DNA from: Tubulanus polymorphus
Taxonomy: Eukaryota; Animalia; Nemertea
NCBI RefSeq assembly: GCF_964204645.1
Contig: NC_134028.1
Coordinates: forward strand, 13,895,653 to 13,959,652
Reading direction: 5' to 3'
Length of the DNA: 64,000 nucleotides
This document shows, piece by piece, positions 15,910 to 41,665 of the stretch. A model generated the notes under the pieces. That model saw only the letters and a list, made by a program, of their open reading frames with translations, was not told where the DNA came from and ran no database searches. How positions within the stretch are numbered: the first letter of the stretch is position 1; each line of letters begins with the position of its first letter. A program made the position numbers and the translations under genes.

Positions 15910-15927
15910 ATTATTATTGATAATGAA

Positions 15928-19225: not shown

Positions 19226-19849
19226 AGCCGGACGTAGGTTGGTCTTGTGACACGATGCGATCCTCGCGTTGCATCGCAAGTTTCGGTGCAAGTCGGTTGC
19301 GATAAGATTGTGTGCGACTAGTTTCTGCCAGTCGCAAGAGCGCGTCGGTTGGTTGTGACAGTCGTGTCGCGTCACAGAAAGTAGAACACGTGCGACTCCT
19401 TGTGACTGGCGTTGCCGAAAGTCGCAACCCGTCGCAAGGGAGTGTAGGTCGATGAATTGTGGCGACACAATCGTCGCTGGCAGTCGCAGTGATTGGCGTC
19501 GCTGGCGGTCGCAGTGATTGGTGTCGCAGTGAGTCACAAGCCGTCGTTAGGCCCAACTACGCCCTGCTTATCGTGTCGCATCGCAAGTTTCGGTTTAAGT
19601 CGGTTGTGATACGATTGTGTGCGACTAGTTTCTGCCAGTCGCAAGAGCGCGTCGGTTGGCTGTGACAGTCGTGTCGCGTCGCAGAACGTAGAACACATGC
19701 GACTCTTGTGACTGGCGTTGCTGAAAGTCGCAACCCCTTGCAAGGGAGCGTAGGTCTTTGAGTCGTTGCGATACAATCGTCGCTGGCGGTCGCTGTAACT
19801 CGTGTCGCAGTTAGTCACAAGCCGCCGCAAGGTCGACCTACGCCCAGCT
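19226..19849. mobile_element. PIF/Harbinger-type MITE with internal tandem duplication (GTCGC-rich)
   Basis: TIRs AGCCGGACGTAGGTTGG / CGACCTACGCCCAGCT; TAA / CAA flanks. Confidence 0.7.
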
Positions 19850-21554
19850 CAAGTCATTAGGAATTAATGAAATACCAGTTTCATTTATGATGAAATTTAT
19901 CATGAAATTTATGATGAAAAAACTCAAATGAAAAGTCTGGCTCATAAAGCTGTCTGCTCAGACGAAATTTTCAAAAAAATCTTCATTTTTGGCAATGAAA
20001 TTGATAATTGTGATTGATAGTTGCAAATCACAACCAGTTAATCACTAATTAACATGCATTTTAATAAATCTGATTCCTCCTTTACAGTGAACTTAGCTTT
20101 AACCTAGTAGAGGCTACTAGCCTATGCAGGCCTATGTACATGCGTAGGCCTAACATCCGGACAGATTGGTCGTAGGCCTATTGAATAACAACCCACCTAA
20201 ATATCGTAAATTTTGTTTTGAAGTTCAATCCAATGAGTCCGTTAATAAACGCAACAATTATGCTGTGTTTGTTTGAAACAGTAAAGCTCAGTACGGTAGG
20301 CCTAAAGCCACGAAAAACTCGATAAACACTTCAAGCGACACAGCGAACGATCTCCTTTCCCCCACAGCGAACGCTTACTCCGAATGTGACGAGTCCAGCA
20401 TACGGAAAGGAGTGTGTTATATACTTGTATTTAGTAAATACCTTGTGCATTTGACAGTGATCGGTATGTACTGTAGGAAATATCGAGTGTTGATGGTATT
20501 GATATAGAGGTTGAAGCCCGCGGCCGAATAAAGTAATTTATTCTTTTATTTTGATACCTCCCTGGTATACTTATGATTTATCTTAGTAAATACACGGTTA
20601 ATTTGGTAAAGAAAAAAAGGTATTGTTAAACTAACTGATGACGCCCGCAACCAAATCACTGGTAGTAATAAATTAATTTGTACTCGATTCGATTCTCATG
20701 ATGAGGAAAAACTCGCAGCTGATCCCCGGAACGACGATGTAGTGACACACGTCGATTCGTCGATGTTTACGGCTCGACAGTGCTTTTAAAATCTAAAGTA
20801 GTAAATTTCCTGTATATCGGTAATATGATTTGATGAGGAAAATGGGCTATTGTTAAAATTAGTTTTAAAAAACCGCGACAGACTGTGCAATCTCTGGGTA
20901 ATAATTTTTTAAATTTATGCTTGAATTGATAATCGATGTGACAAGAAACGTGCGGTAGATTTCGTAAAGACGACTTAAAAAAACATGTCGGCTCTTTGAA
21001 TGGGGGCACAATTTTCGATGTTTACGGCCCGACAGTGCTTTTGTAACGTTGATTCTTCAAAATTCGCACGGAGTATTTGTAGATCGAAGTGAGCTGAATG
21101 ATATCAGACGGATTGTATCGGCAACAGCGGTAATGTAAAAAAGCCTATGTACTTTTGACAAAAAAAGTGTGGAAAAAAATAATAATAATAGTAATAATAA
21201 TAAATATAGCTGCAAAGCAGCGATAACGGGTTTTCTGCACAGTCTTAGAATCCTTCGAAGAAAAAACTTTTTACAATATACTTGTTCGAACGAAAAACTT
21301 AATGTTCTGACAAAAAAATTCTCTTCAAATTAAAACGATTCTGTTCGATCGAATGATTGTTCGAACGAAATACCTTTCGTTTGGACAAAAAAAAGTTTGT
21401 TCAACTTTGTTCTAACGATTTTTTCAAATTGGGTCAATCGAAAAGAATATTAATGTTTGGAATGAAATAAATTTTGTTCCGACGAAAGAATTTTCAAGCA
21501 AAAGGTCCTATGAAAGAAAAAATAAGATATTTCTGGGGCTCCGCAGTAACTTAA

Positions 21555-21872
21555 AGCCGGGCGTAAGTTGGTCTTGAGACACGATGCAATCCTCGCGTTG
21601 CATCGCAAGTTTCGGTGCAAGTCGGTTGCAATACGATTGTGTGCGACTAGTTTCCGCCAGTGGCAAGAGCGCGTCGGTTGGTTGTGACAGTCGTGTCGCG
21701 TCGCAGAAAGTAGAAAACGTGCGACTCCTTGTGACTGGCGTTGCTGAAAGTCGCAACCCGTCGCAAGGGAGCGTAGGTCGATGAGTCGTTGCGACACAAT
21801 CGTCGCTGGCGGTCGCAGTGATTGGCGTTGCTATGAGTCACAAGCCGTAGCAAGGCCGACCTTCGCCCTGCT
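21555..21872. mobile_element. PIF/Harbinger-type MITE (TAA TSD), single-unit paralogue of 19226-19849
   Basis: TAA|AGCCGGGCG...CGCCCTGCT|TAA. Confidence 0.75.
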
Positions 21873-22308
21873 TAAGTCATTAGGAATTAATGAAATACCA
21901 GTTTCATTTATGATGAAAAAACGCAAATGAAAAGTCTGGCTTATAAAGCTGTCTGCTCAGACGAAATTTTCAAAAAAATCTTCATTTATGGCAATAAAAT
22001 TGATAATTGTGATTGATCGTTGCAAGACACAACCAGTTAATCACTAATTAACATGCATTTTAATAAATCTGATTCCTCCTTTACAGTGATCTTAGCGTTA
22101 ACCTAGTAGAGGCTACTAGCCTATGTAGGCCTATGTAGGACTATGTATATGCGTAGGCCTAACATCTGGACAGATTGGTCGTCGGCCTATTGAATAACAA
22201 CCCACCTAAATATCGTAAATTTTGTTTAGAAGTTCAATCCAATGAGTCCGTTAATAAACGCAACAATTTTATACTGTGTTTGTTTGAGACAGTAATGCTC
22301 AGTACCGG

Positions 22309-23596
22309 GCAAATGGTAGAAAGTTTCTTTTGTCCAATGTCGTATAGCGCCGCCGCGGTCGAAAATCGAACTAATCTGTCAAGTCGATAATTTTCTAAGT
22401 GAGAAGACGCCGCGTTCAGTTCGCGGTACACTGTACGTACAGTTTTTCGATACACTGCTGTTCAACAAATTTGTTTTGAAGTTGAAGTTCACAGCGCGCT
22501 ATTCAGTTTTCAGAAGTAGATGGCTAAAATAACATCATTCGTAAGATCTCAGATTGAATATTTTCATCGGATTCAGAGCTCAGTTCATTGTATAAAATGT
22601 GTCATTTCATGTATTAGACAGTTACTTCTATTACTCTGACAGGAGTTTTTATGTCATAATTTTTTTACCTCATGTGTAACTCAATTATAGCAGAGTTATC
22701 AATTATTCATTTATAAATAAATTAGTATTATTAATTTAATTATTGGATTGATTATTATTAAGAGATATGACATTATAAACATATATATATATAATGCACA
22801 TTAATGGATGTTATATAAAATGCAAAGATATGGATGTTATAATGATAATGTATTTCTACTCGCATAGAAATGAGACTAAAGTTTTCCTGTTTGGATATTC
22901 TAAAAGCCTATAAGTCCTTTGTCAAGGATATGAATGGTTTGTGATGATATTATGTTAACTAAATTCATTTGTTGGTCGAACGATTTCAATTAATATCGCA
23001 ATATTTAGCATTCGTGATATAATTAATATGATAGAGATATGGCCATTTGTCTATTGTTTATGTTAGCAAAAGATTGCGTTTGATATAGAAGGCTATAATG
23101 TTTTGATGTATGGTTGAGATTTTCAAAATAAATGTTATGCTTACATGAGATAATTGGAACTAGATGTTTTATTTCATTTTTATCAAGTATCGGTGGATGA
23201 GAAGTCTTTCGACGATGTGCAGTTAGCCCATTAGAGTTTGCCTTAAAATACTTTACTCTCAGTCTAAGCTGAATTTAATTCATACCGCCGTTACAGTACC
23301 ATAAAATTCACACAAAATCTTTAGCGTCATTGGAATAGGACGTCCCCTGTTTCACATCCGGCAGGTGTGTTGACGGTGGGTAAGTTTAATAAGGTACACC
23401 AAATCTATTAAAACGATCGCTATTTTAAAATCAAATCATCCCGAAGAAATTGGGGATTCGTACCTATCGGATATATACTGGTACTCGGCGTCTTTCCACT
23501 TAACAAAACATCGTCAATAACATTAGTTTTTATTATTGCTAAGTAGCGGCGCTACCGGTACTGTCGATCGGACATTAGAAACTTTCTACCTTTTGC
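22309..23596. mobile_element. Non-autonomous Mutator-like TIR element (1288 bp, 9-bp TSD CAGTACCGG)
   Basis: TIRs GCAAATGGTAGAAAGTTTCT / AGAAACTTTCTACCTTTTGC. TSD at 22300-22308 and 23597-23605. Empty site near 17396. Confidence 0.8.
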
Positions 23597-23849
23597 CAGT
23601 ACCGGTAGGCCTAAAGCCGCGTAAAACTCGATGAACACCTCAAGCGACACAGCGAACGATCTCCTTTCCTCCACAGCGAACGCTTACTCCGAATGTCAAT
23701 TGTGAGTCCAGGATACGGAAAGGAGTGTGTTATATACTTGTGTTTAGTAAATACCTTGTGTATTTGACAACGATCGGTATGTACTGTAGGAAATAAAGAG
23801 TATTGATGGTATTGATATAGAGGTTGAAGCCCGCGGCCAAATAAAGTAA

Positions 23850-25113
23850 TGATCCACAGCTAGATTTTCGTAGTATTTGAAAATGTTTCGTAGTATTTAG
23901 AAATGTTCTTAGTGTTGTTTCCGTATGCGTGGGGGTTACGTTAAAGCCGTCAGACAAGAACGTACTAGTAGTAAGAATTACGAAAGTTCTTGTTTGATGC
24001 TTTCATCTACCAACGCAAACCATAAATCAGTCTATAAACAACAATTCTTTCTCGGTTCTTCTGCTGTGAGATCTGGCAAACATTCAGAAAATCTTTATAT
24101 AAAAGTTTTAAATAGTTGGAACCATATTCGGTTGGGTCGGAACAATGGAGTGTATTTATAATGAGGCTCGTGAAGGGATCACGCTGATACTTGATGATAT
24201 TCCCGGCTACTTTCCGTAAAAGGAAAAACCGGAAGTTTAGGAAGATGTGGTTGTTTTGCTTATCCTGTATTAAAATAGAATAAGTTAAATTGTAGATAAA
24301 ATAATTAGTATAAGTATTTCAAATAATTTAAGAATTGATAATCAATCACAATGTATTCTGAATCGTAGTTAATTATAATAATTAAAAAAAAGAAACAATG
24401 AATTTGTACTGTAATTAGAAAAGAAAACAAAGTTTTGAAAAGATATTTAATTTTAGTAATCTAGATGTTGTTTAAGAACAAATTGTTAATAATCGCTAAT
24501 GTTTTAGAAAAATTAATTTGTGTTAAATGTTAAAACTAGCTGTCTGAAGTTTCTGTTGTCTGTATGCGCTCGTTGGTAATTCATAGACAATAGCTGCTCT
24601 CTCAACAACGACTAGCAAGCTGTGAGTAAATCACAACGCGTCATGACAGGAGGGTTGGAAAAAAAAGTTAGTTTAGCAAATCAGTTTTGAAAATAATTTT
24701 AGATCAGCGAAACATTAAGGCCAAATTCTATATGACCAAAACAGTAATGACAGTAAGGTTGCTGCTCCTTGCCAAAAGTCGAGTGGGAGAGTCGGTATTT
24801 TAAGAATGCCGATTCTTTCTATAAAAGGGACCCGCATCTTGAGAGAGCAGTCAATCGAGAGAATCTGTACCTTAGTAAGACGAGTGTCGACAGCAGGACA
24901 GGAGAAGCTTCGGAACGATAGGGATTTTATATACAATAGGGATTAGGAAAATCATTCTTTGTTCAAGGTAAATAAAATATATTATCTTCAATATTATCAT
25001 CCGGTATTTCAATTTATTCATTCGGATTTGTGCACGGACACGTTCTCTCGCCAGGGCCTTACTCAAGTATTTTATAGATAACGATTAAAGAGAGGATTGT
25101 GACCGGTGTATCA
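23850..25113 (+). mobile_element. Solo LTR (1264 bp, TG...CA, 4-bp TSD GTAA), related to the LTR at 27940
   Basis: GTAA|TGATCCACAGCT...GTGTATCA|GTAA. TATAAAAGGG near 24820, AATAAA near 24971. Empty site near 20530. Confidence 0.85.
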
Positions 25114-25322
25114 GTAATATATTATTTTATTTTGATACCTCGTCGACATAACAGCTTATCTCCGCTATATCTCTTCGGCGTGTTCCGTTTAGGCCTACGA
25201 CTCCCCGGTACACTTATGATTTATCTTAGTAAATACACGGTTAATAAGATAAAATCCCACTATTTACAGATTAAAAGAATTTAAAAACAAGAATTTATTT
25301 ATTAAATCTAAAATATTTAAAA

Positions 25323-25596: not shown

Positions 25597-25926
25597 TCAG
25601 TGAGTATTTTATACTATTTGCAGTGTTAATTTAGTAGATTATGGTGTAATAACATAAAAGAATATTCCGTAGTACAAGAGTATAACATAAATCAGTGAAA
25701 TAGAGAAGTAATTCCATTAAATTAAGGTGAAATGTTTTGATGCAAGATAAAGGTTTATTTTGTATTGCGCAATCTAGAAATAGCTCAGATATTATAAGTT
25801 TGTATTATCTGTTTACAGATTTGAATCGTCCAAAATCCGTTGAATAAAGAAACATCAATTTGATATCCGGAGTTTGTTATTTGTCGGACGTATTCAAAAG
25901 CCACCACTTGAAAACCCATCGAGCCA
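25597..25926 (+). repeat. BEL/Pao 5' LTR (portion shared with the 3' copy)
   Basis: Near-identical direct repeat of 45553-45882, ending CA. Confidence 0.9.
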
Positions 25927-25959: not shown

Positions 25960-27174
25960 ATGGTAGATCCTGAGAAGACAACAACAACAACACTTAAGAA
26001 TAAGTGTCGGGCAGCTATGTCAGCATTTACGCGTGTCGAAAATTCGCTGAGTGAGGCTATTGTGGCAAATCGTACGCCAGCCGAAATAAGTTTTAAGCTA
26101 GAAGTGTTGAGGGAGAAACTGTCAGCTGCGGAAAAAGCACACGAAAATTACACAGAAGATATGAATGATGACGAATACGAATTGGAAGAAGCGTGGATAA
26201 ATAATGTTCAGAAACAATTCGATGTCGCTCGAGTCCGGGTAACCGATTATTGTTCGAAATTTGCCGTGTCTCCGGTTAAAACAAGAAACGATGCGTTGAA
26301 TATGCCGAAAATTCCGATGCCGAAATTCTCGGGGAAAATCGACGATTCTTTAGCGTTTCGAAGTGACTGGCAAAGGATAGTCGAGCTTCGATACGGAATC
26401 GCCGATGATGTTTTGTATTTACTGCGAAATGCGTTGGAAAACACAAACCCGGCTTATAACGCGCGCAAGTGGATAGATGGCGTATTCGAATATGCAGAAG
26501 CATGGGCGAAACTGGATCAAGTTTACGGAAATCCACGTGAAACTAGCGATTTTGTTATTGGTGAACTGGAAAAGTCAAAATCGCTGGGTGAGAATGAATT
26601 TTCACGGTTTGTAGAGCTGTTCCATAAGATAAAAAAGGCTGAAATGATAATGTCCGAAATGGAACGAAAAGAAGATCTCGACAATTCAACGACGTTAGGG
26701 GTTCTTGAACGGAAACTGTGTAATAGTGATAAATTGAAATGGGCAGAATGTCAGCTCCGAGATCAAATCAGTCCGAATATTGATACGTTCTTGAATTGGA
26801 TGTGGAACCAGATTCAGATACACAAAATTGCTGGAGCCGATATCCGTAGTTCGACAAATATAAAGAAGGGTTCAATATTAGCCGTAGAAGTGGACAGTGG
26901 GTCAAGTACCGCTGCGAGAAATACCATGAACAATACTCAAGTTTTTCCGGGCTCTACACAAACGCCTTCGTGGCGTCCGCGACCGGAGGGTGCTCAGGGA
27001 AATTACTATGTGACGTCATTTTGGTATTGTAAAGGGGAACACAAAATAGATGACTGTCAGCGTTTCAAGTCATTGTCGTCGAATGTCCGTTTGGAGGAAG
27101 TACGTCGTGTTCATGCATGTTATTTTTGTCTGCGTAGACATAAACCCCCATGTCCTGCGCGAAGGGTAAGATAA
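25960..27174 (+). CDS. gag: BEL/Pao Gag (truncated by the LINE insertion)
   Basis: MPKFSG (DUF1759-like) region and knuckles CKGEHKIDDC and CYFCLRRHKPPC. The third knuckle CPEPACRYSHHILLH resumes near 41685. Confidence 0.9.
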   Translation: MVDPEKTTTTTLKNKCRAAMSAFTRVENSLSEAIVANRTPAEISFKLEVLREKLSAAEKAHENYTEDMNDDEYELEEAWINNVQKQFDVARVRVTDYCSKFAVSPVKTRNDALNMPKIPMPKFSGKIDDSLAFRSDWQRIVELRYGIADDVLYLLRNALENTNPAYNARKWIDGVFEYAEAWAKLDQVYGNPRETSDFVIGELEKSKSLGENEFSRFVELFHKIKKAEMIMSEMERKEDLDNSTTLGVLERKLCNSDKLKWAECQLRDQISPNIDTFLNWMWNQIQIHKIAGADIRSSTNIKKGSILAVEVDSGSSTAARNTMNNTQVFPGSTQTPSWRPRPEGAQGNYYVTSFWYCKGEHKIDDCQRFKSLSSNVRLEEVRRVHACYFCLRRHKPPCPARRVR

Positions 27175-27939
27175 TAATAATAATAATAATAATATTTATT
27201 TACAGTCCGTTACATAAAATATCTCAACAGACTTTACAAATTGACAAAAACATAAGACAGTTGACAGATATATAAAATATTACCCAATAAAATAGATATT
27301 TAATTTCAAACGGTTGCTTCAAGTAAAATCATTTGTAGTGCTGATTAAATAGGTGCGTTTTCAATTGCGAGGTAAAACTATTAAGGGAAGATAAATCGCG
27401 CATCGACTGTGGCAAAGCATTCCAAAGGAAAGCTCGAGAGCCATAAAATTCTTGGCGGTATCTCGGTTCAAATAATTTAGTTGCCACGGTCGAGCGCGTG
27501 TGTCTGGAAGGTGTAAGAGTGGTTAAAACAGACGAAAGATAGGCTGGTGCTTGGTCATGCAAAATTTTAAAAGTTAACAGGAGAATTTTGTATTCAATGC
27601 GCGATTGAACAGGGAGCCAATGTAGTTCATACAGTATAGGAGTGATATGCTCGTGCTTCTTAGTGTGACTAGGCGTGCGGCAGAATTTTGAAGCATTTGT
27701 AGGCGAGAAATATAACAATTCGGAAGACCGTAGAGAAGACTATTACAGTAATCTAATTTGGAAGTTATAAAAGCGTGAATCAATCTTTCGGTGCTAGTGC
27801 GATCTAAAAACTTGCGTATTTTACCAATGCGATGCAGGGAGTAAGAAATCGATCTACAGACGTAAGATATATGACAAGACATGGTAAAATTATGATCGAA
27901 ATAAAAGCCAAGATCTCTGACTGACTGACAAGTAGCTAT
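27171..27939 (-). mobile_element. L2/CR1-group LINE, 3' part with (TTA)n tail
   Basis: VRDLGFYFD...SKLDYCNSLLYG...HITPILYELHWLPV; AATAAA followed by (TTA)n on the minus strand. Confidence 0.92.
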
Positions 27940-29022
27940 TGATCCGCAGCTGAATTGTACTTTCAAAAAGATCAAACGATTAATATACGTAGGTTTCTTG
28001 GCATGGTCCTGGGAGAACACACGCATTGTTCCTTGTGTACGATAATACATTATCCGCCTTAATGGTTGTTTGTCTGAAACATTTATACTTGTATCAGACG
28101 AGCATTCTAAATCACTTTGAAGGTAATCACGGCGCTGTAGTCATGAGAAGAATTCGTGGAAATGAGCAATTATGAAATCAACTTATGAAACACTCGCTGA
28201 CCCTTAGTCTGATAATTCGATAATAAGGAGTAATATTAAAGAGTAATATTAAAAAGTAATATTAAAGAGTTTTATTATTTTAATTAATAAGAGTTTGTGT
28301 GTTTAAATTTGAATGTACTAATAATGATAAAGAATATAAATAAGAAAGATGATATTTCGGCTTACATTGTATATTACTATTTAGACAAAATTAAATACCA
28401 TTCATTGTGGGAATTGTAATCATTGGATAAGTTAAAATAAATGAGTTCGAGGGTTGGAAAAATAGTATATATGTAATCTCTTCGGTGCGGTTGAGAAGGA
28501 GAGCAGACCGGCAGGTATCATGACGTCGAGGGTCGGGTTAAAGTTAGCAGCGAATGAAAGGTCTAGGAATCAGGACCCCAGCTCTGCGTCGTGGTGCTGC
28601 GTTGGTTGCTCGTTCCCTTTTACGGCTGGCCGCAAGCAGGGTTCTGGATTTTTCTTGGGTGTGGACGCAGCCGTATAAAAGGGGCCGCACCTCGAGAGAG
28701 AGCGGACTCTTTTGGAAAGCATTTTCAGGGGAAGCATTAGAAGACTATAGAACAGATAACTTTCGGCTATCCGGTTGAATTGCATCTTCTTGTGTGCGGG
28801 ATTTGTAACAAAATTCTAAATTAAAAGGTAGGGAATTTTATAAATTGTTGAGACTTTAGTTCAGTTAAAATTGTAGAATTAAAGTTGAGTATTATCATAT
28901 TTAAATCCGGAGTTCCTTTTATTCCTTGGTTTTCGGGTTTCTGTGTTCGTGGTCGACTTTCTCGCCAGGGACCGGAGTTTGTAATAGAGGAAAAAGACAA
29001 TAGAGAAAGGGACCGCGGAACA
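27940..29022 (+). repeat. Inverted LTR copy (1083 bp) at the element's 3' end
   Basis: Reverse complement of 38713-39795 (one mismatch noticed, near 28856); TG...CA; TATAAAA at 28674-28680. Confidence 0.95.
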
Positions 29023-29061
29023 TATTGGAATATGTTCCGCGGTCCCTTTCTCTATTGTCTT
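28994..29061. repeat. Perfect 33-bp-stem hairpin at the inner edge of the inverted LTR
   Basis: AAGACAATAGAGAAAGGGACCGCGGAACATATT-GG-AATATGTTCCGCGGTCCCTTTCTCTATTGTCTT. Confidence 0.97.
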
Positions 29062-29406
29062 CGTCGCTATGATGACCCTACTCGTTTCATTGTTCGTTTA
29101 ATTAATTGTATAAATTAATGCGTAAACGTATATCCCACATAAATATCACCTAAAGTAACCACTTAAATACGCATAAAATATCATATATGGTTATTATATA
29201 TCGTATAACTATCCGTAAACGAAAATGACATGATCAGCCTGATCAAATAACAATTGCAAAATAATCTTATCACGACTATACTTACAAAGCCGTCTTATAA
29301 ATTCAGGAAAAAGTGCCCATAGGACACTCCTGCCAGAATATTAACATCGCGAGGAGAGTATAACACTAATTCCTCCAAATGCGATGCTACTAAGTGATTC
29401 AAAATC

Positions 29407-32046
29407 TCAATAAAGACGTGGATACAGACGACCCTCATTTGCCAACATCGATCGCCTAGGTATGTCGAAGGACGGAGGACCTGATGGCAAATGATTGGCC
29501 AACGACGATTCTAGGACCAGAATGCTCGGTTGTTGAGTGTCGGTCTGAGCTTCAACGTCAACAGCGACAATTTCAGGTTCAACTGATGACACTACGAGTT
29601 TCGCCGCTTCTCTCAGTTCCACACTCAACGAACGATAATTAGCCACAACGATTGCTTTACTAGATACCGATAACATCTGCCTCATTTCAAACAGACTTAT
29701 CTTCAGAGGCACCGAGCATGATTTCGGTAAATTATAAACCGTCCCCTGTGAACAGGTCATTTGTTTTTCGTGCCAAGTTAAATTCAATCGAGCAACCCCA
29801 CAAGTGACCTGTAAGGCGACTCTAGTAAGAGCTGGTGGCTCTAAATAACATTCAGATTTACATCCAGACAGCGTTAGTAAAGGTAAATCGAGCCTATGTA
29901 TTCCATTCTTAATTCGCAGCATCAATCTAACTGGATACTTACCAGGCGAGCATGCCGCAGGTAAACAATGCCTGCATCTATAAAATAAAGCACGTAACAA
30001 TGGTCGAAAAACAATTATCAAAATTCCCACTACGATTAACAAAAACAGAACAACATCCACCCGAATATTTTCAGCCATGACCACTTCCTTGATAACTGAA
30101 TTATTCCAACCTCCAGAACGTAAATCGTGAATAGAGGGGTGAATTGTGACCATGGCTTGAGCGGGCGGAAGAAATCCTGCTCCTAACACTGGTATTAATC
30201 CTTGAGATTTTAACAAAACAAATATCGACAGTAACATGCTACCTGCGGATAGACCTATTGCAAGCCAAGTCATCCAACCAGTGCTACCACCATTTGAAAT
30301 AACTGGCTCCTGGTGATCAAATAATGCATCGGCTTGGGAACGGTAAAGTTTTGACTCTTGACTGACAGTTTGGGCCAGTTTCTTAAAATCCATACTAAAT
30401 TTAGTATCAACTGCCGCTACCTTTGACCAATTGTTGGTTTTAAAATCCAAAACAGGCAGCGGTGCGTATGGTGTACCCTGGAACATCGTGGCTCCAGTAA
30501 CATTTGAAACTGCATTTTTCCCAAAGAAACTATGAAGGACGGGAAGGTTCACAGCGTGTGCAATAGTTACAGTGTCCTTTTTTATGCATTTATTAATTCG
30601 ACCAGGGACATAAAACGTTGAACCCCGCAATGCACATGCACAACCAATTTTTATTAAGCAAAAACGACATGCTGGAATCGCTTGTGGTGACTTGCCGGGG
30701 CATGCGAGAGTCCAAAAGTCATCACTGCCTGATACGAGGAAATAGCCGTCGCCCACATCAGCCGCTAGTTCGGCGAGGCCCCCGACCTCGTACCTTATGT
30801 GACATAGCGCTAACACCCGCGAGGGCCTGTCGAAGAAAAGACTACTTAGGCACGAATCAACGGTAATTTCGCGCATGGAGACGCGCTGCTGGCAAGTCAT
30901 CACATCAGTACCATGACAAGTGGAAAAGATATCATGACCCATTTCTGTATAATAGTTACCATCCCTGGTCGCGCCAAAATACGGGGGCGTCCCCACGATC
31001 ATTGAAGTGTTATATGATGTGGCGTTTATTGGGACCGGCATAAGGACCACGGAATACAAATCAAAATAGGTCTGACTAGACTGTAACGGAATTTTGACGG
31101 ATATATAAACATATTTATCTGACTTGGTGAAACAAACATCCTTGACCATATAATAGTACCCCACCTCTCTATTAGCTATAGAAAAGCCTGAGTGCATTCT
31201 ATTAAGTTTTTCCGACACGCCGTCAAGAACGGTAGACAACATTTTAGGGTTGACCAGGGCCCGTGGCAAATATCCCTCCAATAGTTTTTCAATCCCCTGT
31301 AGCCACTCGCCCGAAACTGTCGTCAACCTCTCCACTAAAATTATATTTCGTATCGTCATGTCGGCCGCCAATGCCAGCATGCTAGCATCAACGCTTCGAC
31401 TCAATAGTGCTCCTCGAATGGACTTTAACTCTTTAGAATTAGCAACGTACGCCGAAGTCAGACTACTGATCCGAGTGTCCGTCGCATTGATAAACGAGGA
31501 AAGTGTCCCCTGTATATGGGTAATCTGATCTGAATTGAGCTTGACAATCTTCTCGACTTTCTCTACGTGTGACTCTACTTGTTGGACTTCGTCCTCGGTA
31601 GCTGTACCGAACAAGGAAGAAGAAATCGAACCTATCCAAGAAAGCGGTGCTCGTTTGACTCTTTGCACATTGGCGTGTCGTTTCTTTCGGGAACTGGCGT
31701 TTGCCGCATCCGGGATCATTCGCCTCACATCAGCTAATTGTCCCCTGATGTGAACTAACGTGTCCAACTGAAGACGATGTGCCTCTCGATACATCGCCGC
31801 ATAACCGGTGCAATGAGCGCGAATGTTAGGTTGTACAAGCGAACAGCGTAGTCGCAGACCTTTACTTGGCGGGTCGTCGACTACCAGCCACGGTATTGCA
31901 AACGTGTGGAACCACGCACTATCCCCGTTATGCACTCCACCTATTCTGTGAAAAGCCGCACCGTAGTTCGGCCTCAAAACTGTAGCTGGCGTTGACCCAT
32001 AAGCTTGGGCGAACCAAAGAACCAGTAGTACGAGCGCAACCTGCAT
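29407..32046 (-). CDS. env: Envelope glycoprotein of the baculovirus-F/errantivirus type, intact
   Basis: Signal peptide MQVALVLLVLWFAQA; furin site RVKR followed by fusion peptide APLSWIGSISSSLFGTAT; heptad region; Cys-rich ectodomain; TM segments. Splice acceptor TTATCTTTTCAG immediately before the ATG. Confidence 0.92.
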   Translation of the reverse strand: MQVALVLLVLWFAQAYGSTPATVLRPNYGAAFHRIGGVHNGDSAWFHTFAIPWLVVDDPPSKGLRLRCSLVQPNIRAHCTGYAAMYREAHRLQLDTLVHIRGQLADVRRMIPDAANASSRKKRHANVQRVKRAPLSWIGSISSSLFGTATEDEVQQVESHVEKVEKIVKLNSDQITHIQGTLSSFINATDTRISSLTSAYVANSKELKSIRGALLSRSVDASMLALAADMTIRNIILVERLTTVSGEWLQGIEKLLEGYLPRALVNPKMLSTVLDGVSEKLNRMHSGFSIANREVGYYYMVKDVCFTKSDKYVYISVKIPLQSSQTYFDLYSVVLMPVPINATSYNTSMIVGTPPYFGATRDGNYYTEMGHDIFSTCHGTDVMTCQQRVSMREITVDSCLSSLFFDRPSRVLALCHIRYEVGGLAELAADVGDGYFLVSGSDDFWTLACPGKSPQAIPACRFCLIKIGCACALRGSTFYVPGRINKCIKKDTVTIAHAVNLPVLHSFFGKNAVSNVTGATMFQGTPYAPLPVLDFKTNNWSKVAAVDTKFSMDFKKLAQTVSQESKLYRSQADALFDHQEPVISNGGSTGWMTWLAIGLSAGSMLLSIFVLLKSQGLIPVLGAGFLPPAQAMVTIHPSIHDLRSGGWNNSVIKEVVMAENIRVDVVLFLLIVVGILIIVFRPLLRALFYRCRHCLPAACSPGKYPVRLMLRIKNGIHRLDLPLLTLSGCKSECYLEPPALTRVALQVTCGVARLNLTWHEKQMTCSQGTVYNLPKSCSVPLKISLFEMRQMLSVSSKAIVVANYRSLSVELREAAKLVVSSVEPEIVAVDVEAQTDTQQPSILVLESSLANHLPSGPPSFDIPRRSMLANEGRLYPRLY

Positions 32047-32106
32047 TCTGAAAAGATAACAATGAGCCACGTCAATATGGCAAACTTTGGAACAGTCGTC
32101 GTCCTT

Positions 32107-35100
32107 CTATCGGCGCCTATTTTTAGTTTTCCGGCCCCTGGACTTGGACCTAGCCGCTAAGTCATCCCAATAGGCTCTAATAACTTCTGGGTTCAAGTTT
32201 TCAGCTGGCTCAAACGTATTGTCCTTGTTGTCATAACCAACCCATTTGATGAGATATTTCAAAATTCCCTTTTCTTTCTTGTGACGAATAATCTTTTCTA
32301 CGTAGTAGACAGGCTCCACGTCACTCGTAGTTGGTTTGTCTGGCAGAGCCTGTCCGGGATATTCATTTGATCCCCCATGGTCGTCTGTCAAATTATTTGG
32401 CCGGTCGTCTTGGTGATCCTCGTCCTGGTCACCATCGTTTCCATTATCGATATCGTCGTCGATCCTGTCCAACGGTCGAATGTCAGTAGAGAAGAAGTAT
32501 TTCATCCGATTACAATGAATCGGCACTGCTAATTCCTTATTGTTTTCGTCCTCTAAGATGAAAGAAACAGGAGAAAGCTTTCGAACAACCCGATATGGAC
32601 CAGTCCATTGATGTAAGAGTTTCTTACTCAGCCCTTTTACTTTCTTTGGTGTGAAAACTAAGACTTGGTCACCTACGTCAAAAGTTGGCGGGACTGCCGT
32701 TCTATCAAAACGTTCCTTCATCCTTTCTTGAGCCCTTTTGATGTTATCTCTGGCTAATTCCCTGGCTTCTTTCAATTTCGGTAACATGGCCTGAACAAAA
32801 CCTCCTGCGTCAAAGTAGACATCTTTCGGGTTGAGAAGAGCAACATCCATTGGAAGCTTTGGCTCTCGACCGTACATTAAAAAGAACGGAGAATATTGTG
32901 ATGTGTCTGACGCTGGACTAACCCTGTACGCAAAAAGAATTGGATCTAAGTACGTATCCCAATCTGTCTGACGGTCGTTACAATACATGCTTAGGGCCTT
33001 GACTATAACCAAATTCATGTGCTCAACTTGACCTTGAGTCTGTGGTCTATAAGCACTAGAGCGAGCCCGAGGCGTATTACAGAGTCGCGACACCTCATTC
33101 ATCAACTTACTCAAGAAATTGGTTCCGCGATCGCTCTGTAACACAGATGGGGCCCCGTGTCGGCAAATGATTTGCTCATAAAATATTCTAGCAACTGTGG
33201 CTGCCTCTTGGTCTTTCATAGCAAATGCTTCGACCCATTTTGTAAGATAATCAACGAAAACTAGAATATACTTATTCCCTGAAATAGTTGTTGGAAATGG
33301 ACCACATACATCCATTGAGACCCTGTCCCATGGTCCAGTGACAGCGATCGGATTAACTGGGGCTCGTATGGGCTTTCCCGGCTTATTTTTGGTTGCACAG
33401 TCTCTACAAGATTTGATCCACTTTTCTACGTCTTTGTACATACCCGACCAATAATACCTAGCCCTTAATGTCTCATAGGTCCTCTTATGTCCCAAGTGAC
33501 CACCGGTCATTGAATCATGACCTGCTTCTAGAATTTCGGTGCGCATATTTTTGGGGATCACTAGTTGTCGCGGACCATCTGCCTCTATCTTTTTCTTTGT
33601 GTCTACATGATAGAGTAGCCCTTCGTCATCCAAGAAGTAGTAGTCTGACGACAACAGGATTTCTCTGGCCTCCTTGTCCTCTTCCGGTAAGGAGCCGTCG
33701 GCTAGATAATTAATGATATTCAGCAGATTCGGATCAGACCGTTGATTTACAGACATGTCGTTTGGAATCGGATCTCGATTTTCGGCTTGTACCGCGCATG
33801 CCTCAATCGTGTCCTCTTCGATCTGGGGCTCAGGATACGGTCTCCGCGATAGACCGTCAGCATTGCCGTGCGATTTCCCCGGACGATGAGAGATAGAATA
33901 ATCAAACTGTTCAAGATAAAGCGCTATGCGACCCAAACGACCCGACAAATTCTTCATTGATTTTAGATATTGGAGACAGCTATGGTCAGTTATTATTTCA
34001 AAGTGATATCCCCTCAGATAGGGTTCGAATTTCCGAACTCCTGCCGCTACTGCGAGAAGTTCACGGTCCGTGGTGGAGTAATTCTTTTCGGCTTTTGTTA
34101 ACCCACGCCCTGCATATGCGATTGCTCTCTCAGTGCCCTCCTGAACCTGTGCTAATACCATGCCAATGCCATCGTCAGAGGCATCCGTATATAGTAAAAA
34201 TGGAGCTCCCCCATATATGGGATAGGCCAGAATAGGAACTTCGAGCATTGCGTGTTTCAAGGTGTCAAACGCTCGTTGACATGCAGCATCCCATTTATAT
34301 GGAACACTTTTCTTGGTTAGATTATGGAGCGGCGCGGCTATAGTACTATACCCCTTACAGAATCGCCTATAGTAATTGGTAAACCCAAGAAAGCTGCGCA
34401 GTTGTTTTAGGGTGGTTGGAATGGGCCAGTTCTGGACCGCTGCTACTTTTTCGGGGTCGGTAGCAATGCCGTCTTATGATAAACGGTGACCTAAGAAGTT
34501 GATTTCCTTGAGTGCGAAGTAGCACTTCTTAGGGTTCAGACGAAGCCCTGACGCTCGGAAACGATCAAAAATTCGCGCCAAATGTTCTAAGTGGGAGTCG
34601 AACGAGTCTGAATAGCAGATAATATCATCTAGGTATACAAGGCAAAACTTCCCGATCAAATTCCTAAGAAGACCACCCGTAAGTCTTTGAAAAGTCGATG
34701 GAGCTGATTTCAAACCGAAAGGCAATACCTTGAATTCTAGCAGACCAGTTATAAATGCAGTCTTTTCTCTGCTAGCTTCATCTACACCAACCTGCCAATA
34801 ACCGCTCAAGAGGTCAAGTGAGCTAAAATATCTCGGTGATGCCTGTCCAACTTGAGCTAATAAATCGTCAATCCTCGGCAAGGGAAAAGAATCAGTCCGA
34901 GTGACAGCATTGAGTGCTCTATAATCTACACAAAATCGCCACTTGACCTCACCGTCTGGGCTCTTTTTCTGTACTAACACCACTGGGGCAGCCCAAGGGC
35001 TCGTACTATATTGAACAATTCCATTGTCCAACATTTGTTTTACATGAGTGTCGATGACTTCCTGCATACGAGGGGTTGCCCTATATGGCCTCTTCCGAAT

Positions 35101-37143
35101 AGGGGGTGCATCTCCAGTGTCTATAACGTGTTTGACAAAGTCCGTCTTACCCAATTCCTCTGGGGACCTAGCAAAAACATCTTTGTACGAGTGCAGTAAC
35201 TTAAGAAGTTTTGTTCGTTGTGACGGCATCAGGTCAGACTTGACTAGATCGATCTCAGGTAGTCCTATGTCAGCTGATGTCTGCGGCTCGTTAACCTGAG
35301 TAAAATTGACCTCTGGTGGCCTTGGAAGCTGGCCAAAATCCCCCTTAGTTGACAGCGTCCATCCCTCTGTCCATAAATGACCCAAGCACGTACCCTCATA
35401 CAAGGTCACATGTCGGGATGTAGGGTTCATGACCCTAATGGGAATCCCTGTTGAAGTGACATCAACTACTGACCTAGCGCCTAACAAATCCTGAGTGCGA
35501 AGATGGTTAGATGGCTCAAATACAGCAAACGGCGCTGGAGGTTTGTCCGACAAACAGTTCCCGTTCACAATTACTTCACACGAAGGTGGGACAATTGTCA
35601 TTTCGGTCACTTTAACTGTCGAGGGTTTTCCTAGATTGACTGTATTGCTACTAAAATGGATTGTGTCGGCACCTGGCAGCAGGAGAGCTTTCTTGCCGTA
35701 ATCAATAACAGCATGTTGCTGTTCTAGGAAGTCTGCTCCGAGAATAACATCGGAGCTCACGTCATCGACAACATACATAGAATGGGTGAGATCTAGATTA
35801 CCCAGCTGAAAGTTTATGTCTACTAATCCTCTCAAGTTAAACTTACTTCCATCTACCCCACGAGCGGAATGGAATAGTCCTTCTCGCGTTTCACCTGACT
35901 GAATCTGCGGATTTCTATGTAAACAACCACTATTTAAAACGGATATTTCCGCGCCGGTGTCAATAAGAATATTAAGTGGTATACCAGAATGATGACCAAC
36001 TACCCGATTAGCAACAGTAGCCATTATTGACGGAAAATAGTTCTGGGTAACCCCGTCCTGTTCGTCGATTGTGGAGGCAGAAACTCCACTAAAAACCTCT
36101 GTATTACGTGTCGACTCGTCCTTTTCGGCCTCTGAGTCTACGACAACCTCGTCTTGAACCAAGTCACTTCCCTCGTTACACCCATACAACCCATTATCCG
36201 AACTCTCATTCGGTCGAGAAAAATTAAAAGATTCTTCCTGCGAAAATGTGTTAGCTAATTCAGCCTCTTTTTGGCAGAAGGCAGCTTCCGCTGACCTTGG
36301 TGACTTCAATTCGGACTGATTTGTATCTTCGACCACACCCTGATTTAGTATTTTACTCTCTGAGTATTTTACCTTGTGATTAATTTTATTTGATGGCATA
36401 ATTTCGCATTGTACCGCTGATTCAACTGTCGCAGGGCAACTCTGTTGCGCGACTTCATGCCCCTTAATTATCGGAGAACCCTGTTCCCGCATACCGTCGC
36501 CAGTCGTCGAATTCCCCGGATCGACATTCAGACTGCAGCGCGGCCTACTATCATAACACACATTAAGGCATGATTTATTCGTTTGAATCTCATCTATAAC
36601 CACCGGATCACAAAATGTGACTTTTTTATGCCCTTCTCCATAGAATTTATCCCCAAATCGAACTTCATCTTCTTTTAAGTCATTTTCAAATTCAGATTCT
36701 TTGTCTTGACCGTTATAAAAATGATCTGCCCCCCACGAGGGTGTACGACACTCAGAGAACGTTCCAGAATAATCTTTAAGTTCAGTTTCATCAAAATAAT
36801 AAGAATCAGTCCAATCAGTTTTCAAGTCTTGATCATATTCTGATGGATCAAATAATTCGCAATCATCTAGACACGATTGCGACGACAAATACATGTCCTC
36901 ATTATAAAAATCACCATTTCTACAGGAAGAATCATCGTAATACCAGTGTTGATAGTAGTGACTATCATCCCACCAGAAATCAGATTCCCCTAGCGACGCA
37001 TTTGTTGCGGGCCGTATTGTCGATTCGTCACTGGGCGGCCATTCCTCATAGGATGTTCGTTGGCTACACTGGGGCGACCATTTGTGGTGGTTCGACCCCA
37101 CCCTTGCTGGTCTCCTACAGGATGAGGTCCCATGGCGTTTCCC
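32107..37143 (-). pseudogene. pol: Gypsy Pol (PR-RT-RNaseH-IN-chromodomain) with one in-frame stop at 34474-34476
   Basis: LIDTGA, YLDD, YTDAS/ITDH, GH..H/C..C, SMDVCGP/QSDRG/GQVE, WTGPY, and chromodomain YYVEKII..YLIKWVGY..TFEPAENL. ORFs 34474-37155 and 32107-34260 are in the same frame. Confidence 0.93.
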
Positions 37144-38165
37144 TGATTTGGCCAATTCAACCCTGGGCGTTGATTGCTAAATCTTCTATTGTTGTAATAA
37201 CGTCTAGAGTTTGCCGGGCTAGAATTATTAAGATTTCTGTCGTCTGGGCGCCTCTGATATCCCTGATCCACTTGCCAGGTAGGGCAGTTACGGGCGTAAT
37301 GTCCCGGGGCGTGGCAGCGGTAACAAATCACGCTCCCTCCGCTTGATCTCTGTAGAGATCGCCTTTCATCTGGAGATACTCCCCTCTCATGCTGGTCATG
37401 GCGTCTAGGGTTCGAATCCCTATTTTGAGTTGACATGAGTTGTTTAAACATGTCACGCAATTCAGCCATGACTTCTCGTACCTCCTGATTCGGGCTTGCC
37501 TCAAGCTGATTAACCGAGGGGGCAGTTTTCTTCTTTTTTTCTATGTGTTCTGCCATCCTACCGGCCTCCCAGGCATCTCTAAAAGTAGCGGGCCGCTGGG
37601 ACAGCAGATAAAAGGAAATTTCCGGTTTCGAGTTGTTAATTAACAACATTTTCTTCTGGTGATCAGAGAACTTTAAGCTAGAAGCCAACCGATCGATGTC
37701 CTCAGCAAATTGGTCAATCGGTTGCCCCTCCCCCTGTTTCATGGTTGTCAGGGCAGATTCCCTGACTATGGCCCAAGTTGTCGGGCTAAACTGTTTTATG
37801 AAAGCAGCAACGATATCATCCCAAGGGGTAATTTTTAAGTTGCCAGCCGCATCGGTCTCTTGATCGATGTGCAGATCGTTGAAAAGGACCAAAGCAGGTC
37901 CGGACAGAAACCAGAAAATCTGTTTCTTTTTGTCCTCAGTGGTCCAGCCTCTGAGGTCAGCGAGCCTATCATATCCCCTAAACCATTCATCCACATCTTG
38001 ATTGTCCCGGCCTGTGAATTTCGGAAGGAGGCTGTAATTTACAAACGCTGCTGCTGAGCCCATCTGCTCCTGAAGCCCGGTCAGCGCCCGCATGACTGTG
38101 TCATTGCTGACCGAACTATCAGCAGCCGTACCCGGATCCCCTTGGGCCCGACTTCGAGTCGTCAT
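36990..38165 (-). CDS. gag: Gypsy Gag with CCHC knuckle
   Basis: LPKFTG..W, MKQGEGQPI capsid motifs, CYRCHAPGHYARNC. Confidence 0.93.
   Translation of the reverse strand: MTTRSRAQGDPGTAADSSVSNDTVMRALTGLQEQMGSAAAFVNYSLLPKFTGRDNQDVDEWFRGYDRLADLRGWTTEDKKKQIFWFLSGPALVLFNDLHIDQETDAAGNLKITPWDDIVAAFIKQFSPTTWAIVRESALTTMKQGEGQPIDQFAEDIDRLASSLKFSDHQKKMLLINNSKPEISFYLLSQRPATFRDAWEAGRMAEHIEKKKKTAPSVNQLEASPNQEVREVMAELRDMFKQLMSTQNRDSNPRRHDQHERGVSPDERRSLQRSSGGSVICYRCHAPGHYARNCPTWQVDQGYQRRPDDRNLNNSSPANSRRYYNNRRFSNQRPGLNWPNQGNAMGPHPVGDQQGWGRTTTNGRPSVANEHPMRNGRPVTNRQYGPQQMRR
37091..37143 (-). promoter_or_regulatory. Putative -1 ribosomal frameshift signal (G GGA AAC plus downstream stem-loop)
   Basis: Pol is in the -1 frame relative to gag. 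Heptamer at 37137-37143; GACCTCATCC pairs with GGGTGGGGTC starting about 7 nt downstream. Confidence 0.75.
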
Positions 38166-38317
38166 TGTAAAAAAAATTCATTCAAAATTTCTATTGTTAA
38201 AATCATTATTACTATTACCGATATTCTAACTGATATTACTATTATTATTATTCTTATTATTATCTTATTATTATTATTATCCCTAAAATTCGTAGGAATA
38301 ATGCCAATGTATGGAAT

Positions 38318-38584
38318 TTATTGAAAGATCATGGCATAAAACCTAGAGCTTTCCGCCCATGAGGGGTCTTTGTGCTCTTTTCCCAGCACTTCCGCGGTTT
38401 CTACGAGGCAATTTCGAAGGTGCCTTAACTTTGGCCCATTAGCATTTACAATAAGCTCAAATGTTTCCTCGTCACCGGATGCGTTCGCATCCTGCTCCGC
38501 CCAATAGAGACCGTATAGGCCATCCGTGAATACTTCTAACAGAAAATCATAGGTTTCTTGGGCCTCTATGATCTCTTCATCCAT
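38318..38584 (-). CDS. Small acidic leader ORF (88 aa) between PBS and gag, function unknown
   Basis: ATG-initiated, GC-richer island within an AT-rich leader. Confidence 0.55.
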   Translation of the reverse strand: MDEEIIEAQETYDFLLEVFTDGLYGLYWAEQDANASGDEETFELIVNANGPKLRHLRNCLVETAEVLGKEHKDPSWAESSRFYAMIFQ

Positions 38585-38709: not shown

Positions 38710-38712
38710 ATA

Positions 38713-39795
38713 TGTTCCGCGGTCCCTTTCTCTATTGTCTTTTTCCTCTATTACAAACTCCGGTCCCTGGCGAGAAAGTCGACCACGAACACAGAAACCC
38801 GAAAACCAAGGAATAAAAGGAACTCCGGATTTAAATATGATAATACTCAACTTTAATTCTACAATTTTAACTGAACTATAGTCTCAACAATTTATAAAAT
38901 TCCCTACCTTTTAATTTAGAATTTTGTTACAAATCCCGCACACAAGAAGATGCAATTCAACCGGATAGCCGAAAGTTATCTGTTCTATAGTCTTCTAATG
39001 CTTCCCCTGAAAATGCTTTCCAAAAGAGTCCGCTCTCTCTCGAGGTGCGGCCCCTTTTATACGGCTGCGTCCACACCCAAGAAAAATCCAGAACCCTGCT
39101 TGCGGCCAGCCGTAAAAGGGAACGAGCAACCAACGCAGCACCACGACGCAGAGCTGGGGTCCTGATTCCTAGACCTTTCATTCGCTGCTAACTTTAACCC
39201 GACCCTCGACGTCATGATACCTGCCGGTCTGCTCTCCTTCTCAACCGCACCGAAGAGATTACATATATACTATTTTTCCAACCCTCGAACTCATTTATTT
39301 TAACTTATCCAATGATTACAATTCCCACAATGAATGGTATTTAATTTTGTCTAAATAGTAATATACAATGTAAGCCGAAATATCATCTTTCTTATTTATA
39401 TTCTTTATCATTATTAGTACATTCAAATTTAAACACACAAACTCTTATTAATTAAAATAATAAAACTCTTTAATATTACTTTTTAATATTACTCTTTAAT
39501 ATTACTCCTTATTATCGAATTATCAGACTAAGGGTCAGCGAGTGTTTCATAAGTTGATTTCATAATTGCTCATTTCCACGAATTCTTCTCATGACTACAG
39601 CGCCGTGATTACCTTCAAAGTGATTTAGAATGCTCGTCTGATACAAGTATAAATGTTTCAGACAAACAACCATTAAGGCGGATAATGTATTATCGTACAC
39701 AAGGAACAATGCGTGTGTTCTCCCAGGACCATGCCAAGAAACCTACGTATATTAATCGTTTGATCTTTTTGAAAGTACAATTCAGCTGCGGATCA
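38713..39795 (-). repeat. 5' LTR of the Gypsy element (1083 bp)
   Basis: TGATCC...GGAACA on the minus strand, followed by the PBS; TATA at 39055-39061. Confidence 0.95.
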
Positions 39796-41665
39796 CTATA
39801 CTGTCATCTCCTATTCTAATACTTGATAGCTTGTCTCCCTTACGAAATTTTGACGTAAAATGTATAACCTCTGTCTTACTATCATTAAAAACAAGTCTAT
39901 TGCACTTCAACCATTCCTTTATTTCGTCAACACACTTCTCAACTCTTGATTTAGAAGCTGCACAACTCTTGCAGACGAAATAAATCTGGGTATCATCGGC
40001 ATATAACATTTAGTCGAGTTTATGTTTAATAATAATTTCTTCGATTGGTGCAAGATATAAACTGAAAAGTGTAGGGCCTAGTACACTCCCCTGAGGTACA
40101 CCACACATGAGTTTAACATTTTGAGATGACGATCTGTCAATCACGACACGCTGATACCTATTTTCTAAATATGACCTAAACCATTCTAAAGGAACATCTT
40201 TCACTCCATACCGATTCTGTAATCTATTCAATAGAATACCGTGATCTATGGTGTCAAAAGCCGCAGTTAGATCTAATAAGACGAGCACTACTTCATCGTG
40301 ATTATCAAGAGCTAACAAAATATCATTGTGTACTTTTAAAACTGCCGTTTCGGTGCTATTGAACTTCCTATAGGCAGACTGAAATGTTGAGAAGAGGTTA
40401 TTATCGGATAAATACTGACTCAAATCATTCAATACATGCCGCTCTATAGCTTTACTGATAAAAGGTAGATTAGAGACAGGTCGATAGTTACATAAAACAT
40501 TTGAATTAAGACCTGGCTTTTTCAACATTGGCCTGACTGTTGCTATTTTGAAAGAGTCAGGAACTGTGCCCTCAGTGAGGGACAAGTTAAAAATATCGAC
40601 TAACTTTGGTAAAACTTCAGGTAAACATTGTTTTAGAAAAGTAGTGGGAATCGGATCAATTGAACATGACTTATTGGTCATTGAAGTGATAATGTCGTTG
40701 AGAGACTTTTCAGTAACCGTACTAAAACTATTGAAGGAATGACCAAGATCTATAAAAGGAAAACGAGGGAGTGGTACATCAATAAAAGAATTACATAGTT
40801 TGGCAATTTTCACAACAAAAAAAATCGATTAGCCAGTTCTTTGGGATTGCTGTGCTCTGGCAGCGCGGAAATTACAGACTTCTTATCACTTGTCCATTCA
40901 TCGACAAGGGTGAATAACTTTCTCTGATCGGTACAGTCTGCTATCCAACCGCGATGATAGGATCTTGAGGCTTCTTGCAACAAACTATGGTACTCAATCC
41001 GATTGGCATGATAAATCTGTTTATCGACCTCTAATTTGGATGAGATCCACTTCCGTTCGTGGCTACGTAAAACACGCCTAGCAGCCTGGAGATTGGGTCC
41101 ATACCATGGAGCGCGAGGCTTATCGGTGAAAGTTTTAGTCTTTTCTGGCGCTAGATAGTCCAAAACTGACTTCATCTTAGCATCATAGTCATTCGCCAAA
41201 GAATTAACAGTCCCGGTCTCGGTATTCTCAAAAGATATGTTGCGAACTGTTTCCAGTAACACGTTCTTATCCACCGCTCGGAGGTTCCTGGACACACGTT
41301 CGACCGTCAACGGAAACGGTTTAGATAAAAACGAATTAAATACAATAAGACTATGATCTGACGGCAATGACGTATCAACGATAAAATTTGATACACATTT
41401 ATCGGTTTCACGAGTGATCACTAAGTCTAGGGTGTGGCCCTTCTGATGGGTCGGTCCTTGTAAATGTTGTAAGAACCCAAAACTGCGTAATAGATCAAGA
41501 AACTGTTGGGCATCGCGTCGCACGGTATCGTCAACGTGAAAATTGAAATCACCAACTATTATCAAACAACCTGGCGATATCAAAAAAGTCTCAAGGAACG
41601 TTGAAAATTCAACAAGAAATGTCTTTGTGGTCTGAGCAGGTGGACGATAAACAACTACTAAATTA
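39796..41665 (-). mobile_element. L2/CR1-group LINE, 5'-truncated part (APE C-terminus and RT, frameshifted)
   Basis: VYRPP, GDFN, GHTLDLV, SDH; NYRPVS, AFDTIDH, GVPQGSVLGP, YADD. Confidence 0.93.

Follow-up and report, generated by a model that had tools for sequence, protein, structure and literature searches.

A Ty3/gypsy element integrated between inverted LTRs, with a hairpin at its U5-U5 joint that is likely the scar of a one-off copying error

Ty3/gypsy elements that carry an env gene have been described as 'ancient errantiviruses', with a chromodomain clade reported from Cnidaria, Mollusca and Annelida (PMC13524379). Inverted termini are described for DIRS-1, which has inverted terminal repeats, an internal complementary region (ICR), which repeats the outer ends and is conserved and essential, and a tyrosine recombinase (PMC7192593). 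They are also described for Ginger1, a many-copy group classed as a DNA transposon, with terminal inverted repeats (TIRs) of 40-270 bp, and with CCGG or CCGT targets; these TIRs were suggested to derive from two oppositely oriented LTRs (PMC2836005). Other relevant observations concern retroviral cDNA ends. Integrase takes off two or three bases after the CA (PMC5329712), and in HIV-1 the primer tRNA is reported to be removed save for its last ribonucleotide, with pieces of the primer-binding site (PBS) found at unintegrated cDNA ends (PMC5618025). Host end-joining of such unintegrated ends gives two-LTR junctions (PMC7197481). In one HIV-1 data set, 24 of 88 proviruses combined a complete 5′ LTR with a 3′ LTR into which a deletion extended from upstream; these were ascribed to misalignment of reverse transcriptase (RT) together with strong-stop DNA from a second genome (PMC9278108).

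The locus described here lies in a 64,000-nucleotide stretch of the Tubulanus polymorphus genome (the window; contig NC_134028.1, positions counted from its first letter) and holds a Ty3/gypsy element of 11.9 kb on the minus strand, with an env-like gene and with two 1083-nt LTRs that are inverted, both U3 ends facing outward. The left copy of the target site duplication (TSD), CTAT (27936..27939, plus strand), lies inside a LINE reverse-transcriptase frame and abuts the inverted LTR (27940..29022, plus strand; TG...CA), whose U3 end is at the host junction. Beyond the joint that is the subject of this study come, all on the minus strand, a truncated 3′UTR (29062..29406), an env-like ORF of 899 aa from stop to stop (29407..32106), pol (32107..37176), gag with a zinc knuckle (36990..38177), which overlaps pol in a different frame, the 18-nt PBS (38692-38709), the spacer TAT (38710-38712) and the 5′ LTR (38713..39795), again with its U3 end at the host junction and followed by the right TSD copy (39796..39799, plus strand). 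The gag and pol assignments come from Pfam, which in pol identified protease, RT, RNase H, integrase and chromodomain; pol also carries one in-frame stop (34474-34476).

The insertion is clean at both sides. CTAT is the sole match between the flanks, as the 3-, 5- and 6-mers at the two sides disagree, and both host junctions are exact TG (U3) tips. The LINE frame stops at ...IGDDSI on one side and picks up IATCQSV... on the other, with the two flanks translated separately. The empty LINE site itself was seen in 44 reads of one public DNA run (X5) and in contigs of three others (X1, X2 and X3), which pass from 27939 directly into the right-flank letters when compared by eye. The inverted LTR is identical to the 5′ LTR at 1082 of 1083 positions, the single mismatch being at 28856, and self-BLAST of the window revealed no third LTR. 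The remaining 3′UTR (29062..29406) contains no run of 8 or more purines, and thus no candidate polypurine tract (PPT). Rfam gave no matches across 27900-39900 and ARAGORN no tRNA genes in the window.

By gene content the element resembles the env-carrying Ty3/gypsy elements, with which it shares gag, a protease-RT-RNase H-integrase-chromodomain pol, a putatively F-related env-like ORF, a tRNA PBS and TG...CA LTRs (PMC13524379). The order protease-RT-RNase H-integrase was recovered from two pieces of pol, each scanned separately, and TG...CA LTRs, a tRNA PBS after the 5′ LTR and a short TSD are likewise present, as expected of Ty3/gypsy. In contrast to the errantiviruses, the second LTR of the window copy is inverted, the PPT is missing and pol contains a stop; direct LTRs with a PPT, the remaining hallmark of the group, were not found in this copy, which is a rearranged derivative and not a canonical member. 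The env-like protein has no Pfam match of its own, but it is 43% identical over 847 aa to a protein (P0121) that matches Baculo_F (E 6.6e-09), so that the ORF would be F-type by relationship. A second, decayed env-like gene occupies 61700-63910 (minus strand), is 31-45% identical to the first and has a weak Baculo_F match; near 61590, TG comes after a short tract rich in G, and the two may represent the PPT and 3′ LTR start of that second element. The full 18-nt PBS presumably fits tRNA-Phe. Its first 12 nt match the tRNA end labeled Phe_GAA_His_GUG in the supplement of PMC13524379, where elements with that 12-mer come from springtails and a crane fly (5 rows listed; the summary counts 12 elements). 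Separately, the minus strand is predicted to form a long imperfect stem-loop at the U5 end and PBS of the 5′ LTR (38680-38816), in which the PBS would pair with upstream U5.

At its inner end the inverted LTR does not stop at CA. An earlier note on this DNA had described it as running on into TATTGG and then turning into AATA plus 29 nt of reverse-complement U5, and we confirmed this. The plus strand reads, in order, the LTR end (29022), TAT, TGG, AATA, 26 nt of reverse-complement U5, CTT and the 3′UTR. TAT and TGG (29023..29028, plus strand) are the spacer and the first three PBS bases, so that the sequence copies the 5′ LTR/PBS junction up to 29028 and no further. The result is the perfect 33-bp stem that had been claimed: arm 1 (28994..29026, plus strand), made of the final 29 nt of the LTR followed by TATT, and arm 2 (29029..29061, plus strand), made of AATA plus the reverse complement of those 29 nt, are complementary at all 33 positions around a GG loop (29027-29028). 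In each of 40 mononucleotide shuffles of the element, the best perfect stem measured 7-10 bp, and the only longer perfect stem in the window is a (TA)n run. Folded with a physical loop, the structure has 32 bp and a 4-nt loop (-38.2 kcal/mol, DNA parameters). The turn is blunt, with zero overlap and zero added bases, and the inner 33 nt are the only internal LTR match within the element. Other hairpins lie elsewhere in the window: a perfect 27-bp inverted repeat with a 1-nt spacer lies in AT-rich DNA at 55042-55096, and two related repeat copies (47856-48112 and 59543-59834), which resemble MITE or Helitron ends by appearance only, contain a long hairpin that at 59708-59829 has 56-nt arms (96%) and a 10-nt loop.

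The letters at the turn are informative about its origin because integrase trims after CA, and TATT is therefore expected only at a chromosomal 5′ LTR/PBS or at unintegrated cDNA ends; it is not found beyond the CA of a normal 3′ LTR, and the target here would supply other letters. Both arms keep these bases, which agrees with the earlier note in pointing to unintegrated cDNA ends. Arm 2 starts at the base that pairs with the last A of the tRNA, and the turn lies within 1-3 nt of the tRNA/DNA boundary. The same note had read a CCA footprint of the tRNA at this position. The letters do fit such a footprint, but any 5′ LTR is followed by the same three bases at the start of its PBS, and they therefore do not by themselves prove tRNA copying. 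Beyond the symmetrical TATT only the 2 loop bases are informative, with a chance PBS match of 1 in 8 to 1 in 16. Three other origins were considered and rejected. Autointegration or a nested insertion would join a processed CA to the target, yet both arms retain TATT; if the 3′ LTR had simply been inverted between the short inverted repeats at its ends, TATTGG would not have come along; and two opposite alleles fused in the assembly would yield neither AATA nor the deletion.

To compare the joint with sibling copies, we used public runs from the same species label. Ten runs were considered, of which four, from one study, carry the stretch and X5 is a DNA run with the same species label; the other five (X6-X10) contain almost none of it. 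X5, about 12 in 100 of which was examined, is the only raw-read DNA run, while X1, X2 and X4 are contigs, and each four-run comparison below represents at most 3 samples and 2 studies. The depth was zero at 29029-29058, that is, across arm 2, in all four of these runs (X5, with 551 reads placed on 28879-29178, and X1, X2 and X4), although sibling sequence covered both sides, with an X5 depth of about 51 on the 3′UTR side and about 120-290 on the LTR side. On the 3′UTR side, 44 X5 reads track the window copy to 29059 and then diverge jointly (agreement 0.96), and the contigs run on beyond this point for 247 (X1), 129 (X2) and at least 255 letters (X4); thus, the family 3′UTR is longer than that of the window copy. 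The comparison with siblings that the earlier note had proposed therefore gave both the breakpoint and a 3-nt microhomology, AAG (29059..29061, minus strand), between U5 and the 3′UTR, as the same 3 nt are also present in the family 3′UTR. The chance of a 3-nt microhomology is roughly 5%.

The LTR ends of the siblings look ordinary. At the LTR end, 125 X5 reads exit at 29022 into mixed flanks, 48 continue from 29028 into the PBS and, with the internal region added, 40 pass from 29028 on one strand to 38706 on the other. The LTR start is left by 66 reads, at 27940, mostly into one common G-rich purine tract (agreement 0.63). Both exit points coincide with the ends of the inverted LTR in the window. 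The reads from 5′ LTR to PBS (48) and those running on in the 3′UTR (44) are similar in number, and among the X1, X2, X4 and X5 matches listed, no read or contig joined the longer 3′UTR to an LTR. These counts fit a mixture of normal 5′ LTRs, of 3′ LTRs that have a PPT and of solo LTRs, and it is strongly implied that the siblings carry direct LTRs. Several 3′UTR columns are polymorphic in the sibling reads, which indicates more than one sibling type. Two further features of the sibling reads are that LTR-end-to-host-flank reads (125) exceed 5′ LTR-PBS reads (48), suggesting many solo LTRs, and that internal LTR deletions recur, for example 28722-28953 in three runs.

These data bear most directly on the proposal, made in the earlier note, that the hairpin is a programmed region analogous to the ICR of DIRS-1, which would here belong to a lineage whose LTRs are inverted. 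There is a real likeness, since in both the terminal repeats are inverted and part of the LTR recurs internally (PMC7192593), and the 33-nt sense repeat might in principle take a short minus strand. However, arm 2 is absent from siblings, and the proposal is therefore refuted at the family level; the LTR starts of siblings are mostly preceded by the purine tract, and their LTR ends continue into mixed flanks. The internal repeat also copies the inner end and not the outer ends of the two repeats, to which a DIRS-1 ICR is complementary, and it is not common to family copies. In further contrast to DIRS-1, the element has a DDE integrase (Pfam matches to rve, H2C2 and p58_C on the integrase side), a PBS and a 4-bp TSD, and no tyrosine recombinase was matched by Pfam in the 4 main ORFs, out of 7 of at least 100 aa, the remainder being 3 antisense ORFs (112-188 aa). 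For the family as sampled, we regard a programmed region as barely credible.

Because arm 2 has zero support in all four runs, we considered whether the joint is an assembly or amplification artefact in which pieces of a normal provirus were fused. A blank is expected here, however. X5 does not contain the window copy, as 9 of the 40 positions listed, all internal, have no X5 read bearing the window letter (for example, 0 of 46 reads at 29166 and 0 of 74 at 29956), and contigs drop rare variants; zero depth therefore refutes a signal common to the family and leaves the locus itself neither confirmed nor refuted. An artefact would, in addition, require three coordinated false joins to place U3 tips at both flanks with a matching TSD, and the two LTRs differ at one base. 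We consider this explanation improbable. Scanning metagenomes with the RNase H-integrase piece yielded 2 loci from 147 candidate stretches, which at 1.6 and 2.5 kb were too short for LTRs.

The number of LTR differences was also used to ask when the inverted LTR arose. From the at least 9 private internal positions about 2 differences between the LTRs would be expected, versus 1 seen (P(≤1) 0.40, a rough estimate), which fits both LTRs dating from insertion. An alternative is chromosomal template switching after a normal insertion, in which synthesis would have passed from the 3′UTR to the U5 of the 5′ LTR at AAG, folded back at the PBS edge and returned to the flank at the LTR tips, which are nearly identical. 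Every junction letter is indeed available at the chromosomal 5′ LTR/PBS, and the letters at 28035, 28560 and 28714 are common to both LTRs and absent from most X5 reads. These shared letters are not fully private, however, as non-majority letters occur in 6 of 198, 19 of 261 and 10 of 254 X5 reads; the LTR divergence is no lower than expected; and three switches would be needed, of which one must have hit the tRNA boundary by chance and another the exact position of the TSD. Such a sequence of events strikes us as decidedly improbable.

The explanation that we favor, and which in our judgment just tips towards probable, is that a plus-strand strong-stop DNA became fused end to end, by its 3′ end, with the 5′ end of a minus strand that had jumped early, and that the product was inserted by its two U3 ends. 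Inside the particle, a tRNA-primed minus strand would have copied ATA and about 29 nt of U5, stalled within an A-run and jumped early to the 3′UTR at the 3-nt match, and so would lack R, U3 and the PPT; the departure from U5 after 29 nt does fall within a run of five A. The 5′ LTR would have come from plus-strand strong-stop DNA of an intact genome packaged alongside, which would also have primed the plus strand, and RNase H would have stripped the tRNA save for its last A. The plus strand could then have reached that end (...GGAACA-TAT-T), crossed end to end to the 3′ end of a second strong-stop LTR (TGG) and copied it back to the U3 start. Identical letters would be left by a 2-nt clamp of RT, by a GG overhang sealed onto the minus strand or by host end-joining. 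Read in this way, 29023..29028 would be the 3′ end of a strong-stop DNA of the plus strand, stopped 3 nt into the tRNA, and arm 2 would be the 5′ end of the tRNA-primed minus strand with the last A of the tRNA kept. Finally, integrase would use both U3 ends of the product. As the U3 and U5 tips differ at only 1 of 8 bases, integrase should accept either.

Several of these steps have counterparts in other systems. HIV-1 RT switches templates in vitro on 2-nt overlaps, for which GG works best and CC well, also after non-templated addition, and a clamp was shown with Mn2+ for the MLV and Tf1 RTs (PMC3035444). The asymmetric HIV-1 proviruses share with this locus a complete 5′ LTR and a deletion that enters the 3′ LTR from upstream, and rescue by strong-stop DNA from a second genome copy was proposed for them, as we propose here; in those proviruses the remaining 3′ LTR is at the host junction, whereas here the U5 stub is unprocessed and is followed by a whole inverted LTR (PMC9278108). 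Retroviral two-LTR circle junctions likewise include unprocessed U5 with the last base of the tRNA, and PBS fragments, but these junctions are U5-U3 and extrachromosomal, whereas that of the window element is U5-U5 and integrated (PMC5618025). Against the end-to-end join stand the need for two errors and two strong-stop molecules and the fact that the clamp data come from in vitro work with RTs other than a gypsy RT of this kind. The GG loop could also be filler, and the reads do not vouch for the joint, as no run contains the window copy. We found no paper on in vivo insertion by two U3 ends.

Two other cDNA accidents would end in the same insertion. The earlier note had suggested that two U5 ends were ligated tail to tail and that one arm was lost later, which gives the same letters at the turn but fits less well than a join after an early jump. 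In its fuller form, the right end of a normal cDNA would have been joined, or sealed, to a second LTR end (TGG), the product inserted by two U3 ends, and a palindrome of about 1.1 kb or more then reduced by a deletion at the 3-nt microhomology that removed the greater part of one arm together with the PPT and the 3′UTR end. Host end-joining is known to make two-LTR junctions (PMC7197481, PMC5618025). Long perfect palindromes are unstable. Their collapse usually removes the center, however, and here the center is intact; the outer breakpoint is 255 letters or more past the end of this copy's 3′UTR, outside the arm; and a full dimer would require a second deletion. We therefore hold joining first and trimming later to be possible but unlikely.

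The earlier note had also proposed snap-back priming, in which plus-strand strong-stop DNA would have folded on itself or replaced the tRNA, copied 33 nt, jumped to the 3′UTR and made the whole minus strand, with U3 finished on the strand's own 5′ part. It has the merit that a single strong-stop molecule suffices for one continuous plus strand that reads LTR, turn, U5′, 3′UTR′, genes′, PBS′ and LTR′. As written, however, it is weak: the turn offers no priming base pairs, with a blunt joint and an unpaired 3′ GG, the new strand would have to begin exactly at the base of the last A of the tRNA, and the resulting panhandle has one double-stranded end and no PPT for the second strand. We judge it very unlikely. 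The sequence does not separate the joining routes, nor a deletion before insertion from one after it. What these three accounts have in common, a cDNA accident inserted by two U3 ends, is in our view likely to be correct.

We conclude that this locus is an aberrant, defective provirus with an unusually legible joint, one copy and not a working system, and that its hairpin probably records a single copying accident instead of serving as a programmed signal. No paper describing an integrase-encoding element inserted with inverted LTRs was found, in a searched literature that is sparse in subscription journals. If the joint is real, it is a germline record of a gypsy integrase inserting cDNA by two U3 ends, in which cDNA tips that are normally removed stay preserved in the middle of an element, and it would mark the tRNA cut point and the plus-strand strong-stop end for this gypsy family. 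Annotation tools that require direct LTRs would miss such copies.

A real joint would, moreover, offer a one-step route to inverted termini around a gypsy integrase, as against the two-insertion idea put forward for Ginger1 (PMC2836005). Like Ginger1, the element has a gypsy-type integrase between inverted termini that start with TG, and a 4-bp TSD (PMC2836005). Unlike Ginger1, which has short TIRs, many copies and no RT, it is a single whole retroelement with RT and RNase H between 1083-nt inverted LTRs, in a form unseen in siblings. A more speculative extension, which we think very unlikely, is that the welding of strong-stop LTRs to minus-strand starts is a recurring one-step route to inverted, integrase-competent ends and that a copy such as this could found a heritable inverted-repeat lineage. 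If so, the copy might be mobilized in trans, its 33-nt repeat acting as a small acceptor for strand transfer, or be excised like a DNA transposon, and we would be looking at an intermediate stage in the proposed Gypsy-to-Ginger1 transition. A search of PMC2836005 for tRNA found no mention, and a tRNA remnant in the Ginger1 TIRs is accordingly not assumed here.

The surroundings of the element are themselves rich in repeats. The element is the innermost of three nested insertions (25597-45882), lying inside a LINE (about 27170-41700), with RT and endonuclease matches, that in turn lies inside a BEL/Pao element. The latter has direct LTRs (25597-25926 and 45553-45882) that are 97.9% alike and matches to Pao peptidase, RT and integrase. 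The entire cluster lies within a pair of very AT-rich inverted repeats of 1.5 kb (1917-3382 and 47982-49453), 88% alike and about 45 kb apart, which could be two copies of a repeat or the arms of a large fold-back. Between the left member of this pair and the BEL/Pao element, 10944-25253 holds numerous fragments of a single repeat family, rearranged, in either orientation and 79-93% alike, together with a long microsatellite of 9-nt units (about 15000-15980).
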